Shown piece after piece: positions 12,952 to 20,384 of a stretch of DNA of 64,000 nucleotides (position 1 is its first letter; every line of letters starts with the position of its first letter). The notes below the pieces were generated by a model. The model saw only the letters and a program-made list of their open reading frames with translations, searched no databases and was not told where the DNA came from. The stretch is taken from positions 37,480 to 101,479 of the forward strand of contig CAZCXH010000001.1 of the NCBI GenBank assembly GCA_964502525.1. Direction: 5' to 3'. Both the position numbers and the translations under genes were made by a program. Source of the DNA: an uncultured Chitinophagaceae bacterium (GTDB taxonomy: Bacteria > Bacteroidota > Bacteroidia > Chitinophagales > CAIOSU01).

Positions 12952-14271
12952 ATGCTTCGCCACACGACTCATATCATCATTGATGATCCGGACAACTTCA
13001 AGCGGCAAGCGCTGAGTTGGGCGGATGAAAATTTTGACACGGCCTGCTATTTCGACAATAATCATTACAAGAATTATTCACATCATTCTTATGAGGGACT
13101 CATTGCAGCAGGCGTAAAGAACATGCTGCTGCTGAATTGCGCAAACGCATTTGACAGCCTTAAGAATTTTTATGAAAACAGGAAAGACTGGCTCTTCGGC
13201 TTTCTCGGATATGACTTGAAAAACGAAGTCGAAAAACTTCAATCAGAAAATCATGACGGCCTGAATTTCCCCGATTTGTTTTTCTTCCAGCCGGAAGTGG
13301 TGATTGAGATTTTTGAGAAGCATGCGGTGGCGCATGCTTGCAGCGGTGCTTTCCCGCTCGCAATGCTCCGGAAGGCGCAAAACTCAATTCCGTCCGCATC
13401 ATCAGGGGAGATTCAACTCTGCAGCCGTGTTTCGAAAAGGGAGTACCTTGATACAGTTCAGAAAATCCGCAAGCACATATCGCGGGGCGATATCTATGAG
13501 ATGAATTATTGCCATGAATTTTTTGCCGAAAATGCCGGGATCAATCCGCTCAGCGCTTTTCTGCTACTGAACGAAGCCTCAAAAGCTCCCTTTTCATGTT
13601 ACTTAAAATTTGAAGGCAAGTATCTTTTATCGGCAAGTCCGGAGAGGTTTATGAAGAAGGAAGGAAGTAAACTTATTTCAATGCCTGTTAAAGGCACGGC
13701 CCGCAGGGGAAAAAGCCAGGATGAAGATGAGTCGTTGCGGAAAAAACTTTTTACAGATCCGAAAGAGCGCTCCGAAAATGTGATGATTGTGGACCTGGTG
13801 AGAAATGATTTGTCGCGCGGTTGCCTGGAGGGAACGGTGAAAGTGGAAGAGTTATTCGGCATCAAAACATTCCGGCAGGTGCATCAGATGGTTTCGGCAA
13901 TTTCAGGAACGATGAGAGATGATGCGCATTTCATTGATGCAATTAAAAACGCTTTCCCGATGGGATCCATGACGGGCGCTCCAAAAGTTCGCGCGATGGA
14001 ATTGATCGAGCAGTACGAAAAAACAAAGCGCGGCTTATATTCCGGTGCTGTTGGATACATTGCGCCTGATGGAGATTTTGATTTCAACGTGGTGATCCGT
14101 TCGCTGCTCTACAATTCAGTCAATCAATATCTCTCGTTCCATGTCGGCAGTGCGATTGTTGCGGATTCAGTTCCGGAAAAGGAATATGAGGAGTGTTTGC
14201 TGAAAGCGAAGGCGCTGAGGGAAGTGATACAGTCGGCTATGATTAACAGCGATTCGCCCACAATGGCTTAA
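12952..14271 (+). CDS. pabB: aminodeoxychorismate/anthranilate synthase component I family (PabB-like)
   Basis: Chorismate-binding C-terminus: SPERF, KGT..RG, ENVMIVDL.RND, FP.GSMTGAPK, RG.Y.GA.GY. Starts at the first ATG. Confidence 0.8.
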   Translation: MLRHTTHIIIDDPDNFKRQALSWADENFDTACYFDNNHYKNYSHHSYEGLIAAGVKNMLLLNCANAFDSLKNFYENRKDWLFGFLGYDLKNEVEKLQSENHDGLNFPDLFFFQPEVVIEIFEKHAVAHACSGAFPLAMLRKAQNSIPSASSGEIQLCSRVSKREYLDTVQKIRKHISRGDIYEMNYCHEFFAENAGINPLSAFLLLNEASKAPFSCYLKFEGKYLLSASPERFMKKEGSKLISMPVKGTARRGKSQDEDESLRKKLFTDPKERSENVMIVDLVRNDLSRGCLEGTVKVEELFGIKTFRQVHQMVSAISGTMRDDAHFIDAIKNAFPMGSMTGAPKVRAMELIEQYEKTKRGLYSGAVGYIAPDGDFDFNVVIRSLLYNSVNQYLSFHVGSAIVADSVPEKEYEECLLKAKALREVIQSAMINSDSPTMA

Positions 14272-14450
14272 AGCTTTGGCACATTTTTAAAATTTGTCAA
14301 AACAATCCGACTAAATATTTCATCTCACCATGACACCCTTTGGCTGAGTCTCATCCTAACATTGCCTGAAATGATCTTCGCATGCAGGGCAACGATGATT
14401 TCGACATTCACGCAGTTCTTGAGCATCTCAATTAACTCTGGTCGGAACAT

Positions 14451-14819
14451 TTGGACGACCAGGAGGATCCCTCGATCGTGGATGACATCATCGAAACGAT
14501 AAAATCCCTTGTTATCAATGGATATGACTTTTTGCTGCTCAACCAATTGAGATTTGATGATATTGCTCCGGTTGCCGGGCAGCATTTAAAGGAATTAGCT
14601 GACATCGCCTCAAAGAAGAATGTGGTAATAAAAAACCAACACTACGACACGGCAGCATGGCTGAGAGACCGCGAGAAAACAATCATTGGCAATATCCTTT
14701 CTGAAAAATTTGGGAAGAAATATTTCATGTTGCTGGACGAAGCGGAAAAGAAAATTATTTTCAGGTATTCGAATAGGGATATAGATAGGCTGGTGCCGGA
14801 CAATAGAAAAAGGTTTTAG
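14451..14819 (+). CDS. small hypothetical protein with a UVR-like motif
   Basis: HYDTAAWLRDREK resembles the UvrB/UvrC/McsA UVR motif (Y/F-E-x-A-A-x-L-R-D). There is no in-frame ATG, so the track uses a TTG start. An in-frame ATG at 14382 is separated from the ORF by TAA 14433-14435. It competes with the antisense ORF 14325..14585. Confidence 0.35.
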   Translation: MDDQEDPSIVDDIIETIKSLVINGYDFLLLNQLRFDDIAPVAGQHLKELADIASKKNVVIKNQHYDTAAWLRDREKTIIGNILSEKFGKKYFMLLDEAEKKIIFRYSNRDIDRLVPDNRKRF

Positions 14820-14827
14820 AGAATTAT

Positions 14828-14835
14828 TACTTTTG
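14828..14835 (+). promoter_or_regulatory. candidate Bacteroidota -7 box (tacttttg = TAnnTTTG)
   Basis: Exact match to the TAnnTTTG consensus, 47 nt upstream of the ATG at 14882. No convincing -33 TTG element. Confidence 0.3.
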
Positions 14836-14881
14836 GAAATCTGATCGAAGATAATATCGTAACTTAAAAATACTTCTTAAC

Positions 14882-15898
14882 ATGACTATTTGGGCGCTTA
14901 AAGGACCTTCTTCTGAAGATTATAGTATTAAAGAATTGCAAGAAGCTCAGCAATTTCTGACAGATTCATTTAAAAATGGAACATCCCGATTTGGGTGGAG
15001 TTACATTGATGGAGCAAATCTCAATAACCTGCAATCAAAGCAATGGCAAGAAATGACAGATGATGAACGGAACTGTTGGTCAAAAGCAAATTTTCTGCTT
15101 GAGATCGAAAAAGATGACTGGGTTGTGCATATTAATTTACCCTACTGGGGTGCCTGTCTTGCAGGGCAGGTTACAGAAACATACGCCTTTGAGGAAGAAA
15201 ATGATTTTGGTGATTATCGGCATACTCTGAAGATTGATATAGACAGTATTGTTGAGTTTGAAAGGAATGATGATGAGGTGTTGCCGGTTATAGGTAGTAG
15301 ATTAAAGCTACAAGGCAGATTCTGGCGTATCCAATACGTTGAAGAGTTCCTACAGTCAATTCAAAATTTAAAATCTAAGTCATTAAAAAAAAGTGACAAT
15401 GAGAGTGTCGGGATTTACTATCTTAAAAAAGACTTATCCCCTTTGCTTAAAAATATAACCAATAAAATTCAAAAGACTCATCCTTCCGGGAAACTGGAAA
15501 ACTTAATTGCTGAAGTGTTTCGCAAAATACCCAACGTGGTTGACGTTAATGAGCACGGAAGGAATAAGGGTTGGGGAACCGACCATGGTGCGGATTTAAT
15601 TGTTACTTACAAATCCGGGCTCACAATCAGCAACCTTGAAAAAGAAGAAAAGCTTGTTGTTCAGGTAAAGTCATATACAGGCCAGCATTGGGAAACCACT
15701 GCCGTCCAGCAAATTGAAAACGCCATATCCGAGTTTACAGCGGATGCTGGTTTAATTATTACAACAGCTGAAAGCACAAAAAATCTGGAGGAAGCAATTG
15801 AAACGTTAAGTAACAAAACAGAGAAGCCGATTGGCTTGATTGCTGGAGAAGATGTTGCGAAGTTTGTGTTGAAATATGGTAGAGAATTAATCCTCTGA
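14882..15898 (+). CDS. Mrr-type PD-(D/E)xK restriction endonuclease domain protein with an unassigned ~200-aa N-terminal domain
   Basis: C-terminus WGTDHGADLIV-(17 aa)-VVQVKSY fits the Mrr_cat D...(D/E)xK core. The N-terminal half (FGWSY, DDWVVHINLPYWGACLAGQV, GDYRH, GRFWRI) is unassigned. AT-rich: one 60-nt line counted by hand gives 21/60 GC. Confidence 0.75.
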   Translation: MTIWALKGPSSEDYSIKELQEAQQFLTDSFKNGTSRFGWSYIDGANLNNLQSKQWQEMTDDERNCWSKANFLLEIEKDDWVVHINLPYWGACLAGQVTETYAFEEENDFGDYRHTLKIDIDSIVEFERNDDEVLPVIGSRLKLQGRFWRIQYVEEFLQSIQNLKSKSLKKSDNESVGIYYLKKDLSPLLKNITNKIQKTHPSGKLENLIAEVFRKIPNVVDVNEHGRNKGWGTDHGADLIVTYKSGLTISNLEKEEKLVVQVKSYTGQHWETTAVQQIENAISEFTADAGLIITTAESTKNLEEAIETLSNKTEKPIGLIAGEDVAKFVLKYGRELIL

Positions 15899-15921
15899 AC
15901 TTCGGACAATTTTTTGTTTAA

Positions 15922-16439
15922 ATGACTTCCTTTACTGCCCGCGATTTTGAAACTGCCCAAGGCTACCGTTGGATCATCTGCCAGGTTGGATTGGTGAGAG
16001 TGGTGAATGGACAAATCACTAACAAGCTTGAGCTACTTGTACAACCTCCCGATAATCATTATTGGTGCCGCTTCACCGAAATTCACGGCATCACATCTGA
16101 GATGACTGAAAATGCTCTCACATTTGATAAAGTGTGGCATCTGATTGAGCTATCTATCCGAAATCAAAACGTAGTAGCGCACAATGGTCATGCTTTTGAT
16201 TTTCCCTGCTTGCAGCAAACACTGGATTATTACGGAATCGAAATGCCGGAATTCTATCCTCATTGTACCTACCGGTTGTTTGGTGATGGACTCGCTCGCT
16301 ATGTAAGGAATATCAGATCGAACTGAATCATCACAACGCACTCTCTGACGCACGGGCTTGTGCATGCGAGGCTATTTTTGATTCATCCGGAGCAACAGGA
16401 GGTAAGTTTATTACAGCAATAATCAAAGAATCGAAATGA
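15922..16439 (+). pseudogene. DEDDh (DnaQ/epsilon-like) 3'-5' exonuclease, frameshifted
   Basis: ExoI is ARDFETA and ExoII is HNGHAFDF, both in frame 1, which stops at 16326. ExoIII (HHNALSDARACA) is in the +2 frame, which is open from 16287 to TGA 16437-16439. A 1-nt deletion in the ctcgctcgct run (about 16291-16300) would explain the shift. Confidence 0.75.
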
Positions 16440-16933
16440 AACTAGAATTTGAAATAGTATCAATAGATTGGAGTGACTCTGCAATTAAAATACAAGATGT
16501 CTTTAAAAAAGAGACGACTACAGCCGAATTACGCAATTTCAAGGATAAGACTGACTGTCTCTATCAGGTTTATGGAGACAGCATAATTTATGGTCGTGAT
16601 AAACTTCTTTATATCGGGCTGACATCAAACCTTTCGCGTAGAACCAACAGCCATCTTGAAACGGATTTTAGCAGGATAACAAATTTTTCCTTGCTGCTTG
16701 GAGAAATAAGATGGAATACCCTTTCTAATGAAAAGTTCAAGGAAGCTGGAAATCGTGGTGAATCCTTAAAAATTTTAGAAAGCATCTTAATCACTTATGC
16801 AAAACCTTCATACAACTCGGACAACATAAAAGATATTTATCCTAAATCTCGCAATTACAACATTCTGATTCAGAATCATGGAAATAGGAGAGACTTGCCC
16901 TTGGAATGCTCCAACTCTTGGTGGAAAGAATAG
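16436..16933 (+). CDS. GIY-YIG nuclease-domain protein (UvrC/Cho N-terminal type)
   Basis: LYQVYG...LLYIGLTSNLSRRTNSH...ESILITYAKPSYN matches GIY / YIG / R / E..LI...P.YN. The ATG at 16436 overlaps the restored exonuclease stop (ATGA). Very AT-rich: 17/60 GC in one counted line. Confidence 0.65.
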   Translation: MKLEFEIVSIDWSDSAIKIQDVFKKETTTAELRNFKDKTDCLYQVYGDSIIYGRDKLLYIGLTSNLSRRTNSHLETDFSRITNFSLLLGEIRWNTLSNEKFKEAGNRGESLKILESILITYAKPSYNSDNIKDIYPKSRNYNILIQNHGNRRDLPLECSNSWWKE

Positions 16934-17010
16934 ATTCTGACATTTTTACTTTTCACTGAATGTTATAATAATAGTTTCAGCCCGCGACATGATTTGGCGC
17001 AGTAGTCACA

Positions 17011-17018
17011 TAGATTTG
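17011..17018 (+). promoter_or_regulatory. candidate Bacteroidota -7 box (tagatttg = TAnnTTTG)
   Basis: Exact consensus match, 27 nt upstream of the ATG at 17045, inside the 111-bp gap after the GIY-YIG gene. Confidence 0.3.
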
Positions 17019-17044
17019 CCTCCCCGTTTTAAAAATTACCATCT

Positions 17045-18163
17045 ATGATTGCTACGCAGAAAATTCAATCAACCGAGAGGAACATTGAGGTCAGGGAAAA
17101 CCTTGAAATCCGTAAAAGCGAATTGGCGATATTCGATGACCGAACAAGCTATGTCAGTTGCTCCAGGGTTTATTACGCCTACTTTGAAAAGATTCCCAGT
17201 TTGATAAGATTTGGCAGAATTAATTACAGACGCGTTATCAACTGGATAGAAAATGAGATGGCTGACCGTATTTTGAAAAAACATTCCAGGAGAGAATATG
17301 AAGATAGAAATAAATTTAGCAGTGAGACAATGGTGTATGTTCTTAAAAATAATTTGCTGATATGCCTTGGTCAGGATGGCAGCGGCTTGATTCTATATGA
17401 ACAAAACGGCAATGAGGCAGCGGAGCTTATCTTTCAAAGAGTGATTGGTTTCAGAAGGAGGAAAAGAAAAACAACTGATTTCAGCGTCATTACACGGGGA
17501 ATGGAAGGTTTCAGGCTCGTGGACATCAATAACCGGAAACCGGATCTGCAGTTGCAAAGAAACTATAATGACGACCTGATCCCATTGCATCAAAATATTT
17601 TAAAAAAGTTAAGAAGCGAAAAAACCAGTGGACTGATTTTGTTTCATGGCGCTCCTGGCACGGGCAAGACCACCTATATCCGATATCTGATTCATTGCCT
17701 GAATAAGAGGGTCATCTTTCTTTCTCCCAAACTGGCGGGAAATCTGGATTCACCTGACCTTATTAAGTTGCTGCTTGAAAACCCTGATTCAGTCTTGCTG
17801 ATTGAGGATGCGGAGGATTTGATTGCTTCAAGGGATTCGGACAAAAACTCCGGTATTTCAATGCTGCTGAATCTGTCAGATGGCATTCTTGGTGAAAGCC
17901 TTGGCATACAGGTGATTTGCACTTTCAATACAAGTATCGCAAATATTGATCGAGCGCTGTTAAGAAAAGGAAGATTGATTGGTGCGTATGAGTTCAAGCC
18001 ACTATGTGTTGCAAAATCAAAAGTGCTGTTGCATAATTTAGGAGTCACCACCTGTATCCCTCATCAGCCTATGACGCTTGCGGAAATTTATCATGTTGAG
18101 GCGAACCACTTTGAATTTAAAGCCGGGAGGAATGCGATAGGATTTGTGGCTGCTGCTGCGTAG
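17045..18163 (+). CDS. classical AAA ATPase (Bcs1-like layout) with an unassigned ~190-aa N-terminal domain
   Basis: Walker A is FHGAPGTGKTT, Walker B is VLLIEDAEDL, and the second region of homology / Arg finger is IDRALLRKGRL. The N-terminal half has no motif I recognise. Confidence 0.85.
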   Translation: MIATQKIQSTERNIEVRENLEIRKSELAIFDDRTSYVSCSRVYYAYFEKIPSLIRFGRINYRRVINWIENEMADRILKKHSRREYEDRNKFSSETMVYVLKNNLLICLGQDGSGLILYEQNGNEAAELIFQRVIGFRRRKRKTTDFSVITRGMEGFRLVDINNRKPDLQLQRNYNDDLIPLHQNILKKLRSEKTSGLILFHGAPGTGKTTYIRYLIHCLNKRVIFLSPKLAGNLDSPDLIKLLLENPDSVLLIEDAEDLIASRDSDKNSGISMLLNLSDGILGESLGIQVICTFNTSIANIDRALLRKGRLIGAYEFKPLCVAKSKVLLHNLGVTTCIPHQPMTLAEIYHVEANHFEFKAGRNAIGFVAAAA

Positions 18164-18181
18164 CTTCAAATAATATTTACC

Positions 18182-19087
18182 ATGTCCAAGCGCGAATACC
18201 TCACCCGCTACCTGCTCATCATCAAAAGATTAAGGAGAACCCCCGCTACCTTCCGGGAGATCAGCGACTACCTGCAACGGGAATCGGAATTGCAGGAGTT
18301 CAACTTCACCATTTCCAAACGCACCATGCAGCGCGACATCCGGGAGATACTGTCCATCTTCGGCATTCAGATCGAATATGATTTCTCACGGAAGGTTTAT
18401 TTCATCGCAGATGATGCTCATAATGATGTGAACAACCGGATGCTCGAAGCCTACGAGCTGTTCGATGCGCTGCGCCTTAATGACAAGATTTCTTCGAGCG
18501 TTTATTTTGACAACCGCAAAGCGCAGGGTGCGGAGCACCTGCACGGTATGCTCTATGCTATCAAAAATCGCAGGATCATCCGGTTTGACTACCAGAAGTT
18601 TTGGGAAGACGAAAAGACATCCCGCGCAGGCGAGCCTTATGCGCTGAAAGAATTCAGGAATCGCTGGTACGTGCTGATGCGCGATCTCAAGGATAAAACG
18701 GTCAAGAGTTTCGGCTTAGACAGGATTTCCGAGTTGGAGATAACGAAAACAGTTTTCAAGGATTCGCTTGAATTCAACATCAAGGAGCATTTCCGCAACT
18801 GCTTTGGCATCATCAGTCCGCATGACGGGGAGCCGCAGGAAATCATCTTGTCATTCGATTCGGTGCAGAGTAAATATTTGAAATCTCAGCCTTTGCACGA
18901 AACGCAGGAAATTTTGATGGAAACGGAAAATGAAACCCGTATTCGTCTGAATGTTTTCACCACCCATGATTTGATCATGGAGTTGCTCTCATTTGGAGAT
19001 AACGTAAAAGTGCTAATGCCCGAAAGCCTGGCAACTCAAATTCGTGACATTCTGAAAAGGACGTTGGCTAATTACGCTAAACTTTAA
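18182..19087 (+). CDS. HTH-WYL-WCX transcriptional regulator
   Basis: N-terminal wHTH (ATFREISDYL...ISKRTMQRDI). The WYL core is PYALKEFRNRWYVLMRD...FGLDRI. The C-terminal extension is typical of BrxR/CapW/PafBC-like regulators. It starts 18 nt after the AAA gene. Confidence 0.85.
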   Translation: MSKREYLTRYLLIIKRLRRTPATFREISDYLQRESELQEFNFTISKRTMQRDIREILSIFGIQIEYDFSRKVYFIADDAHNDVNNRMLEAYELFDALRLNDKISSSVYFDNRKAQGAEHLHGMLYAIKNRRIIRFDYQKFWEDEKTSRAGEPYALKEFRNRWYVLMRDLKDKTVKSFGLDRISELEITKTVFKDSLEFNIKEHFRNCFGIISPHDGEPQEIILSFDSVQSKYLKSQPLHETQEILMETENETRIRLNVFTTHDLIMELLSFGDNVKVLMPESLATQIRDILKRTLANYAKL

Positions 19088-19106
19088 ACTCTAAATTTCA
19101 AACTGA

Positions 19107-20384
19107 TTACTCCGCCACCACCAAATAATAATTCTTCTTCCCTTTCTGCACGAGCAGGTACTTGTTGTTGAGCAAATCCTTTGAGGTGAGTTTCATATTT
19201 TCATCAGCAACTTTTTCTTTATTGATGCTCAGTCCGCCTTCCTTCAAAGTTCTTTTTAATTCGCCCTTTGATGGAAACACCGCTGCTGATGCAGTCAGTC
19301 CATCGAGCAGCGATACTCCGTTTTCAAATATTGATTTCGATGCCTGAAAAACCGGCACTCCTTCAAACACGCTCAGGAAATCTTTCTCCGAAATGGAGAG
19401 GAGCGTTTCCTTTGTTGCCTTGCCGAATAAAATTTCAGATGCATTCAAAGCGGTCCGGTAATCATCTTCCGAATGAACCATCACCGTTACTTCCCTGGCA
19501 AGGCGTTTTTGCAGGTTCCTTAAATGAGCAGCCTGCCTGTGTTCCGCAACCAGCCCGTCAATTTCCTCCTTTGTAAGAAAAGTAAATATTTTGATATACT
19601 TTTCGGCTTCTTCATCTGAAACATTCAGCCAGAACTGGTAGAATTTGTAGGACGATGTCATCTCCGCATCAAGGTAAATATTCCCCTCTTCGGTTTTTCC
19701 GAATTTTCCGCCATCCGGTTTGGTAATCAGCGGGCTGGTGACGGCATAGGACTCACCTCCGCCCATTCTCCGGATGAGTTCTACCCCGGCAGTGATGTTG
19801 CCCCACTGGTCGCTGCCGCCCATCTGCACGGTGACGCCATGATGTTTGTTCATCCAGTAAAAATCATACGCCTGAATCAGTTGGTAAGAAAACTCGGTGT
19901 AGGATATTCCTGTCTCCATGCGTGACTTCACCGAATCCTTGGCAATCATATAATTAACAGTCAGATGTTTTCCAGCGTCACGCAGGAAGTCCAGCAACGT
20001 CATTTCCTTAAACCAATCGTAATTGTCAAGCATCAGCGGAGCTTTGGAGCTTTTTCCGAAATCAAAATATTTTGAAAGTTGCGTTTTCACGCGTTCTTTA
20101 TTGTGCAGCAGTTGTTCCTTGGAGAGAAGGTTGCGTTCCGCTGATTTTCCGGACGGGTCGCCAATCATCCCCGTGGCGCCACCGAGCAATGCAACGGGAC
20201 GGTGGCCGCAGCTTTGAAAAAAACGCAGTATCATAATCTGCACAAGATTGCCGATGCCGAGCGATGAGCTGGTGGGGTCAAAGCCGATGTAACCGGATGC
20301 CGCATGATTTTGCAGGAATTTGTCCGTTCCGGGAATCATGTCGAAAAACAATCCGCGCCACTTGAGTTCAGCTATAAAATCCAT
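19107..20384 (-). CDS. tyrS: tyrosine--tRNA ligase
   Basis: HIGH-type GFDPT..SLGIGNL, KFGKT (KMSKS variant) and a C-terminal S4 domain. Starts at MDFIAELKWRG; the upstream extension in the track is unlikely. Confidence 0.95.
   Translation of the reverse strand: MDFIAELKWRGLFFDMIPGTDKFLQNHAASGYIGFDPTSSSLGIGNLVQIMILRFFQSCGHRPVALLGGATGMIGDPSGKSAERNLLSKEQLLHNKERVKTQLSKYFDFGKSSKAPLMLDNYDWFKEMTLLDFLRDAGKHLTVNYMIAKDSVKSRMETGISYTEFSYQLIQAYDFYWMNKHHGVTVQMGGSDQWGNITAGVELIRRMGGGESYAVTSPLITKPDGGKFGKTEEGNIYLDAEMTSSYKFYQFWLNVSDEEAEKYIKIFTFLTKEEIDGLVAEHRQAAHLRNLQKRLAREVTVMVHSEDDYRTALNASEILFGKATKETLLSISEKDFLSVFEGVPVFQASKSIFENGVSLLDGLTASAAVFPSKGELKRTLKEGGLSINKEKVADENMKLTSKDLLNNKYLLVQKGKKNYYLVVAE

Follow-up and report, generated by a model that had tools for sequence, protein, structure and literature searches.

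A genomic island of an uncultured Chitinophagaceae bacterium as a probable copy of a Bacteroidota-wide WYL regulon with a DdaA/DriD-type operator

Results

A 4.8-kb island was analysed in a 64-kb stretch of the genome of an uncultured Chitinophagaceae bacterium (contig CAZCXH010000001.1; hereafter the window, with positions counted from its first nucleotide). The island lies between pabB, which ends at 14271, and the convergent tyrS, which ends at 19107, and is filled by six plus-strand open reading frames (ORFs): a small ORF with a UVR-like motif, an Mrr-type nuclease, a DEDDh exonuclease, a GIY-YIG nuclease, an AAA ATPase and a WYL regulator. ORF calling and Pfam recovered all six, together with the motifs assigned to them in a preliminary description of this DNA, which had proposed an undescribed defence or DNA-damage module. 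Across genomes, the AAA and WYL genes form a conserved pair, an operator-promoter is shared by this pair and by recurrent cargo genes, and the window island fits the pattern. The island is very probably one copy of a widespread, Bacteroidota-wide, co-regulated WYL regulon with this operator. WYL regulons of the DdaA/DriD/PafBC type are already known; this one stands out by a promoter architecture of fixed spacing and by its conserved partner, a Bcs1-like AAA ATPase. No paper on the AAA-WYL pair or on a WYL regulon of Bacteroidota was found among the open-access papers searched.

Conservation of the AAA-WYL pair

A genome scan with the AAA protein of the window gave 80 loci, nearly all from Bacteroidota (Chitinophagales, Flavobacteriales, Cytophagales, Sphingobacteriales and Bacteroidales); ORFs were called and clustered, and the locus set used below numbered 86. 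A WYL homologue (29-57% identity) is present in 61 of the 86 loci. Of the 43 loci with at least 5 kb of flank on both sides, 38 (88%) have the WYL gene no more than 5 kb away from the AAA gene. The two genes are adjacent in the order AAA-WYL in 15 cases and separated by cargo (AAA-cargo-WYL) in 23, and upstream, divergent and convergent variants were also observed. The AAA-WYL neighbourhood is thus conserved. The wider proposal of a functional neighbourhood around the WYL regulator also holds, in that the AAA, exonuclease and Mrr-type families recur with the WYL gene or the operator in other loci.

A shared operator-promoter at a fixed spacing

The promoter element was derived from the 130 nt upstream of AAA genes and consists of the palindrome CGNCA-N5-TGNCG, 11 nt and the sigma-A −7 box TAnnTTTG. 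In the window it occupies 16985-17018 as CGACATGATTTGGCG-CAGTAGTCACA-TAGATTTG. The palindrome CGACATGATTTGGCG (16985..16999, plus strand) matches exactly, where 0.13 occurrences are expected at up to two mismatches, and the −7 box TAGATTTG (17011..17018, plus strand) begins 11 nt past it, 26 nt before the AAA start codon. A position weight matrix (PWM) built from 41 distinct instances of the element gave two hits only in the entire window, one scoring 37.5 before the AAA gene and one scoring 18.3, against 0.05 hits of at least 18 expected in resampled sequence.

The element precedes the AAA gene in about 50 of the 86 loci. In 1.23 Mb of AAA-centred loci, 113 PWM hits of at least 20 were found, compared with 0.4 in Markov resamples, and the bare palindrome is 13-fold enriched. 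Among the 113 sites, 51 are located before AAA genes and 62 before others, namely genes for WYL proteins (9), DnaB_C-like, DUF2779, NT5C and SLOG-like families, small proteins with TM2 domains or UVR motifs, and others. The spacing is nearly constant: where a TAnnTTTG box lies within 60 nt of a palindrome, it stands exactly 11 nt away in 66 of 73 cases.

In the PWM no TTG is conserved where one would usually stand, at −33, and the promoters therefore look activator-dependent; the canonical spacing to the upstream hexamer is about 19 bp. The Bacteroidota −7 box spans −12 to −5 (PMC9723704), which, together with the fixed 11-nt spacing, places the palindrome at about −38 to −24, with its centre near −31. 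The second transcription unit (AAA-WYL) proposed earlier has a conserved, regulated promoter at the 17011 box.

The second hit of the window (14328..14367, plus strand) lies just past pabB and ahead of the small ORF. It reads TGACA-N5-TGGCT ahead of the −7-like box TAACATTG and is a weak, operator-like variant of the element that would serve the cargo unit. The preliminary description had assigned one TAnnTTTG promoter to each of two units, with boxes at 14828 and 17011. Both boxes are present, and the second one carries the operator, whereas the box at 14828 (TACTTTTG, 14828..14835, plus strand, 46 nt ahead of the Mrr-type gene) has none and the operator-like site of the cargo unit is found further left at 14328-14367. 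A third TAnnTTTG box, not recorded earlier, was found at 16373, so that three of the six such boxes on the plus strand of the 64 kb fall inside the island, a notable share.

The same layout, i.e., weak site, cargo, strong site, AAA, WYL, was observed in the two loci holding the closest AAA relatives (L212 and L214, 58-62% identity). There a UDG-like cargo gene follows the weaker site (scores 24.1 and 18.3) and AAA-WYL follows the strong one (34.7 and 32.6); both islands are flanked by housekeeping genes, at another chromosomal position than in the window. The left-hand weak sites of the window and of L212 (5039-5078) share their deviations, TGACA for CGACA and a −7 box of the TAAnATTG type, a hint that cargo may have a promoter class of its own that is weaker by design. 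Two other arrangements of the element were seen. In L056 (7677-9215) and L058 (8411-9213), a stretch of about 1.5 kb contains three to five tandem operator-promoters, each of which is followed by one small gene of unknown function (clusters c121 and c119), and in L024 (14208-14266) one palindrome lies between the divergent promoters of a WYL gene and of a 266-aa gene of unknown function.

The operator was also sought blindly, by exact pattern, in metagenome contigs. At least 127 sites in at least 120 loci were obtained, almost all with PWM scores above 25. Among the 127 sites listed, the gene immediately downstream encodes a WYL protein in 28, a Bcs1-like AAA in 7, a 555-aa AAA in 7 and a double zinc-ribbon protein in 4. 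Singletons among them include the exonuclease and genes for DnaB_C-like, RecD-like helicase, DUF4268, SprT-like, ATPase plus Peptidase_M41, phage lysozyme, Peptidase_M15, LRR and CAP proteins. Since WYL is the most frequent downstream gene, the element appears to be primarily an autoregulatory site of the WYL family. The 120 loci listed contain several recurrent families: WYL (41), both AAA families (9 and 8), the exonuclease family of the window (7), the zinc ribbon (5), a UVR-motif protein (3) and a GIY-YIG-like protein (3). Altogether, five of the six gene classes of the window recur in the operator regulon. Operator-driven functions also extend well past nucleases, as seen in metagenome loci L147, L189, L190, L162 and L141 with Peptidase_M15_4/VanY, phage lysozyme, SprT-like, RecD-like helicase and an ATPase fused to Peptidase_M41.

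The WYL regulator and its published relatives

The WYL regulator (18182..19087, plus strand, 301 aa) probably shares a transcript with the AAA gene, from which it is separated by 18 nt. It had been described as an HTH-WYL-WCX protein. The WYL (PF13280, 1.7e-14) and WCX (PF25583, 2.4e-10) domains are borne out, each being detected in 34 of 34 family members, whereas the helix-turn-helix (HTH) goes undetected by Pfam in the window protein. We infer a divergent N-terminal HTH from the architecture and from a conserved SxRTxQRD helix, in which R47, T48, R51 and D52 are conserved and R47 and R51 are (nearly) invariant. When the family profile was compared with the PDB, the best match was PafBC (2.5e-21), followed by DriD (2e-14 to 1e-13) and BrxR/CapW (9e-5 to 2e-3); judged by sequence profile, BrxR and CapW are far more distant from the regulator family than PafBC and DriD are.

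The operator itself is a published one. DdaA of Moraxellaceae binds CGWCA-N5-TGWCG and DriD of Caulobacter binds CGAC-N7-GTCG, both being activators that sense single-stranded DNA (ssDNA) (PMC12392091, PMC13010146), and at the level of sequence pattern the Bacteroidota palindrome has equal half-sites and spacing. WYL regulons in damage response and defence are likewise of a known kind, and the word "undescribed" was therefore too strong for the regulator (PMC12392091, PMC13010146). Further likenesses to DdaA and DriD are the class-A architecture (with WYL and WCX detected and the HTH inferred), a recognition helix of the R47/R51 type, and the placement of the operator pattern at the promoters of the putative regulon and at the regulator's own gene. 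In DdaA, R47 and R51 are needed for promoter binding (PMC12392091). The position of the R-x-x-R motif, which PafB and PafC require for ssDNA binding (PMC11804915), reads F-G-L-D-R in the window family; its second Arg is invariant and its first is replaced by Gly, a loss shared with DdaA, where Ala takes the place of the first Arg (PMC12392091). Ancestral DdaA homologues are reported to regulate uncharacterised genes adjoining their own locus (PMC12392091).

There are differences as well. The present family belongs to Bacteroidota, a constant 11 bp joins its operator to a −7 box, it has a conserved Bcs1-like AAA partner, and no recA, uvrA or ssb is found among the sampled targets. Similarity to DriD is confined to WYL-WCX (E about 1e-14, family profile).

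The promoter geometry recalls that of actinobacterial WYL proteins. The activator site of PafBC lies directly upstream of a −10-type element where the promoter has no regular upstream hexamer (−26 element, "sigma adaptation"), and SiwR of Mycobacterium smegmatis controls adjacent genes from an imperfect palindrome upstream of the −10 (PMC11804915, PMC10693628). The Bacteroidota operator is also directly upstream of a −10-type element. PafBC, however, acts as a heterodimer on an asymmetric site and governs a large regulon of canonical repair genes, whereas the palindromic Bacteroidota site implies a homodimer and the genes carried as cargo are accessory and vary.

The Bcs1/YjoB-like AAA ATPase

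The AAA ATPase (17045..18163, plus strand, 372 aa; Pfam AAA 6.2e-11) has a β-rich N-terminal domain followed by a classical AAA domain, and holds the motifs GAPGTGKT, LLIEDAED and RKGRL. Walker A and B, sensor 1 and the arginine fingers (GAPGTGKT, IEDAED, TFN and RKGR) are invariant across a 28-sequence alignment. The family is large in Bacteroidota (1712 representatives with E≤1e-30 at the 50% identity level) and is conserved over its full length of about 357-375 aa.

By sequence the protein falls in the classical AAA clade, with E-values of about 1e-7 at best to solved structures, and BCS1_N of Pfam does not match it. Its AlphaFold2 (AF2) model (pLDDT 80.6) gave heptameric Bcs1 (9gsn, 3.5e-12) and YjoB of B. 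subtilis (7w42, 1.9e-11) as the best Foldseek matches, over about 390 aligned columns and ranking above proteasomal and p97 ATPases. The modelled protein resembles Bcs1/YjoB over its full length, a single classical AAA domain standing behind a β-rich N-terminal domain in each. Unlike both, it is genetically tied to a WYL regulator, and sequence identity is about 15%. Unlike Bcs1, no membrane anchor is seen: residues 1-38 are polar and of low confidence, and no hydrophobic segment is evident by eye. The region between Walker A and B is without an aromatic pore loop, a feature that Bcs1 presumably lacks as well. YjoB is a chambered chaperone of a stress regulon (PMC9565160).

The AAA domain (residues about 150-367) is also 37-43% identical to jumbo-phage ATPases that carry a BCS1-like annotation (records H1-H15, e.g., PA5oct MK797984.1 259727-260368), a group described in PMC7824862. 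The N-terminal domain of the window protein is not common to these phage ATPases.

Nucleases and other cargo

The Mrr-type nuclease (14882..15898, plus strand, 338 aa) joins a putative reader-like N-terminal domain, through a linker helix, to an Mrr-type PD-(D/E)xK domain at its C-terminus, with matches to Mrr_cat of Pfam (5.2e-10) and to the hidden Markov model (HMM) of PADLOC PDC-S02 (5e-13), itself only a candidate family. Its AF2 model (pLDDT 90.4) was matched best by MspJI (4f0p, 1.8e-6) and AspBHI (4oc8, 5.2e-5), approximately over the full length and about 360 columns, and these enzymes share the two-domain arrangement with the nuclease at the C-terminus. Identity is 11-13% and the TM-scores are only 0.30-0.33, so the domain orientation is uncertain. 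On the modelled structure, the protein is probably a modification-dependent (type IV) endonuclease, and specificity for a modified base is a prediction. Both N-terminal domains that had been left unassigned, here and in the AAA protein, now have structural matches.

The Mrr-type family is broad, with 724 homologues in several phyla. Homologues at 66-74% identity recur in L208, L206, L023 and L207. In L208 the order is AAA-Mrr-WYL behind an operator scoring 39.0; in L206 an operator (35.0) is followed by the exonuclease and then the Mrr-type gene; and the L023 island also contains a close homologue. In L207 (7001-8020), a 66%-identical homologue without an operator lies within a stress cluster of TerD, TerY, vWA, PP2C and protein-kinase genes.

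The DEDDh 3'-5' exonuclease (15922..16439, plus strand) is frameshifted. The RNase_T match (2.4e-10) sits in a 134-aa ORF at 15922-16326, and an NCBIfam PRK06195-like match (3.8e-27) was also found. When intact 164-aa homologues were aligned by tblastn, frame 3 was followed to about 16290 and then frame 2 for SLCKEYQIELNHHNALSDARACA, reaching a TGA at 16437-16439 that overlaps the ATG of the GIY-YIG gene. The three Exo motifs (DFET, HNGHAFD and HHNALSDA) are all present, with Exo III out of frame past the shift near 16290-16296, and no single intact frame in the window holds Exo I, II and III. Intact homologues have 158-175 aa, and the family occurs as cargo in 14 AAA-centred loci (36-71% identity). 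The third TAnnTTTG box mentioned above (TATTTTTG, 16373-16380) is in the 3' end of this gene, 55 nt before the GIY-YIG start and without an adjoining operator; it may be an internal promoter.

The GIY-YIG nuclease (16436..16933, plus strand, 165 aa) scores 25.7 bits against a cutoff of 22.6 bits (Pfam GIY-YIG, 1.4e-5). The family is rare, with four homologues found. The preliminary description had raised co-occurrence of the exonuclease and GIY-YIG genes, and a PRK07883 match had suggested a comparison with DnaQ-Cho fusions. The pair is not conserved: the GIY-YIG cargo family of the sampled loci (c15) never occurs with the exonuclease there, and the two homologues of the window protein whose context was examined (in three loci) are stand-alone. 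Membership of this gene in the module is thus a matter of its position and of the recurrence of the GIY-YIG class.

The small ORF (14451..14819, plus strand, 122 aa) has a TTG start and contains YDTAAWLRD. Its Pfam UVR match is below threshold (E=0.012, 15.8 bits against a 21.5-bit cutoff), and its similarity to the operator-driven small UVR-motif proteins of L068 and L109 is weak (2.6e-4 to 5e-4, phmmer against a small local database).

The cargo of AAA loci, which often lies beside the AAA and WYL genes or between them and is often preceded by the shared operator-promoter, is variable and comprises DEDDh exonuclease, GIY-YIG, Mrr-like, UDG-superfamily-like, NT5C, PDDEXK_4, DUF2779/Cas4-like, metallophosphoesterase, Sir2 and ATE_C genes; the PDDEXK_4 cargo matches PADLOC PDC-S26 at 4e-106. 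Another cargo gene encodes a second, IetA-like AAA of about 555 aa (PADLOC IetA, 2.7e-25), seen in L024 (7913-9580, minus strand) and in metagenome loci such as L111, L116, L186 and L196. As this second AAA is operator-driven as often as the Bcs1-like one in the blind sample, the regulon carries two different AAA ATPases. Small proteins upstream of AAA genes in other loci were considered as part of a conserved two-gene system, and the idea was dropped because the genes vary by locus. The AAA-WYL core occupies different chromosomal sites in related bacteria, and transposase genes of the IS21 and IS3 families lie a few kb from some AAA loci (L001/L006 4136-6465; L003-L005 3708-5312; L032).

Layout and composition of the island

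The gene spacings reported earlier are correct, being 23 nt between the Mrr-type and exonuclease genes, an ATGA overlap between exonuclease and GIY-YIG, and 18 nt between AAA and WYL. The mosaic composition, first noticed on single lines of sequence, also extends to whole genes, whose GC contents are.412 (small ORF),.386 (Mrr),.440 (exonuclease),.357 (GIY-YIG),.416 (AAA) and.468 (WYL), a range of.357-.468; the references are.457 for pabB,.465 for tyrS and.465 for the whole window. The WYL gene is therefore at genome level and the rest of the island (14451-18163) at.357-.440, and the histories of regulator and cargo may differ.

No tRNA was found between 8 and 26 kb of the window and no convincing repeats flank the island, in agreement with the preliminary description; no integrase gene was noticed within the island and no Rfam family was found there. 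A scan for sigma-70 promoters and terminators gave chance-level results, as expected for Bacteroidota. The island had been said to map onto no named system, and no named anti-phage system of PADLOC v2 (Septu, Gabija, PARIS, Lamassu, BREX, Shedu, Zorya and others) was recognised through its component HMMs. Within the island PADLOC matched the candidate family PDC-S02 and the generic models for DEDDh and WYL, and weakly the P-loop of TRIP13/IetA, and NCBIfam and PHROGs supplied no informative names except an epsilon-like exonuclease and phage AAA families of unknown function.

Discussion

The observations can be explained by a co-regulated WYL regulon that is activator-driven and triggered by ssDNA, a reading to which we give, as a whole, a probability of roughly 0.6. 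Its second component, activation in response to ssDNA, stands at about even odds. Under this explanation the WYL protein would bind the palindrome as a dimer and would be switched on by ssDNA arising from DNA damage or from the entry or replication of foreign DNA, as are DdaA, DriD and PafBC. It would then turn on the operator promoters and so induce itself, the AAA ATPase and the nucleases, which would attack or process abnormal or foreign DNA, and modified DNA in the case of the MspJI-like enzyme. The AAA ring would be a constant induced effector or a resetting device. This is the most speculative step and we regard it as doubtful; as a chambered protein remodeller, the ring might act on the regulator or on protein-DNA complexes and not on variable cargo. 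A constant target is favoured over cargo-specific chaperoning because the AAA protein is constant while the cargo varies.

The output of such a regulon could be anti-phage defence, given cargo such as the type IV-like enzyme, PDC-S02, PDC-S26, Sir2 and Cas4-like proteins, or it could be damage processing, given the exonuclease and the UDG-like, NT5C, SprT-like and RecD-like proteins. DdaA serves both purposes.

Several observations weigh against this reading. About 20 AAA loci, some of them short contigs, have neither a WYL gene nor the operator. Within the window, the left-hand site is weak at 18.3, the PWM scan gives nothing of at least 8 beside the 14828 box, the broken exonuclease suggests that the module may be decaying, and the two examined GIY-YIG homologues carry no operator and have no link to the system. 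Neither recA nor uvrA nor ssb was found downstream among the 127 blind sites listed or the 113 sites of AAA loci, unlike in the DdaA and PafBC regulons. The regulator has no Pfam HTH match, and HTH_11 is detected in only 2 of 34 relatives at 0.004. The correspondence of R47 and R51 to those of DdaA is one of motif and position, the HTH being unaligned to DriD and DdaA, and the pairing of regulator with operator was drawn from co-location, autoregulatory position and identity with published operators. Furthermore, an operator that overlaps the core promoter is in a classic repressor position as well.

This last point leads to an alternative in which the WYL protein acts as BrxR or CapW does, as a repressor that occupies the core promoter of a toxic defence island until infection frees it; the module would then be a derepressible anti-phage island and not a regulon driven by an activator. 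An operator at about −38 to −24 overlaps the footprint of RNA polymerase, the WYL gene is often autoregulated through a palindrome at its promoter, and, as with BrxR/CapW, the regulator stands beside variable islands rich in nucleases and NTPases. The cargo includes the PADLOC candidates PDC-S02 and PDC-S26, the IetA-like AAA, Sir2 and Cas4-like nucleases, chromosomal positions vary, and insertion sequence (IS) elements lie near some loci. Nevertheless, the profile scores to BrxR/CapW are at least nine orders of magnitude worse than those to DriD and PafBC, and the operator is of the DdaA/DriD type, i.e., that of two experimentally shown activators. The missing TTG at −33 points to activator dependence, and PADLOC detected no named defence system adjoining, with no BREX or CBASS nearby. 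Repression of this kind is therefore considered unlikely.

It is highly improbable that six independent single-gene functions came together by chance in a low-GC insertion hotspot; these would include a type IV restriction enzyme, an exonuclease undergoing decay, an orphan GIY-YIG, an AAA protein of chaperone-like nature and a regulator. The stand-alone GIY-YIG homologues, the Mrr homologue in an unrelated Ter/vWA cluster, the operator-less −7 box of the Mrr-type gene, the frameshift and the unequal GC contents would all fit such an assemblage. However, AAA and WYL are together in 88% of the adequately flanked loci, the exonuclease and Mrr families recur in other AAA-WYL islands and behind the same operator, and operator hits exceed their expectation by 113 to 0.4, so that chance is largely refuted for AAA, WYL, the exonuclease and Mrr.

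Least probable of all is a remnant of a prophage or mobile element, with the operator as a lysis-lysogeny or induction switch and the AAA protein as an assembly chaperone of the phage BCS1 type. In favour of it, the AAA domain shares about 40% identity with the "BCS1" ATPases of jumbo phages (PMC7824862), operator-driven genes include phage lysozyme, Peptidase_M15 and DnaB_C-like, and the GC content of the island is low. Against it, no integrase gene was noticed in the island, no flanking repeat and no tRNA between 8 and 26 kb were found, the islands of the closest relatives are flanked by housekeeping genes, and IMG/VR viral contigs hold 33 exact matches to the pattern only, mostly with low PWM scores and none with WYL or AAA homologues.

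The reading as a co-regulated, ssDNA-triggered WYL regulon could be carried one step further. As a tentative possibility, the WYL protein and the Bcs1-like AAA would form a phylum-wide "sensor-motor" core of an inducible DNA-conflict system, to which interchangeable cargo, nucleases or repair genes, is recruited through copies of an activator-dependent promoter, the AAA ring being a new effector or reset device. If so, the AAA protein might extract proteins from DNA or dismantle the activated regulator, and the system would be a new class of inducible defence against phage or foreign DNA and not another damage regulon.

WYL regulators, so far characterised only in Actinobacteria, Caulobacter and Moraxellaceae, join DNA-damage sensing to phage defence. 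The fusion of operator and −7 box at 11 bp allows PafBC-like promoter reprogramming to be tested with the unusual sigma-A of Bacteroidota, and the operator can be used as a probe for further inducible nucleases. The regulation of the PADLOC candidates PDC-S02 and PDC-S26 would be explained. Bacteroidota would gain a concrete regulon that is easy to test: its operator-promoter is sharply delimited, its sensor autoregulated, its AAA partner conserved and its cargo catalogued.

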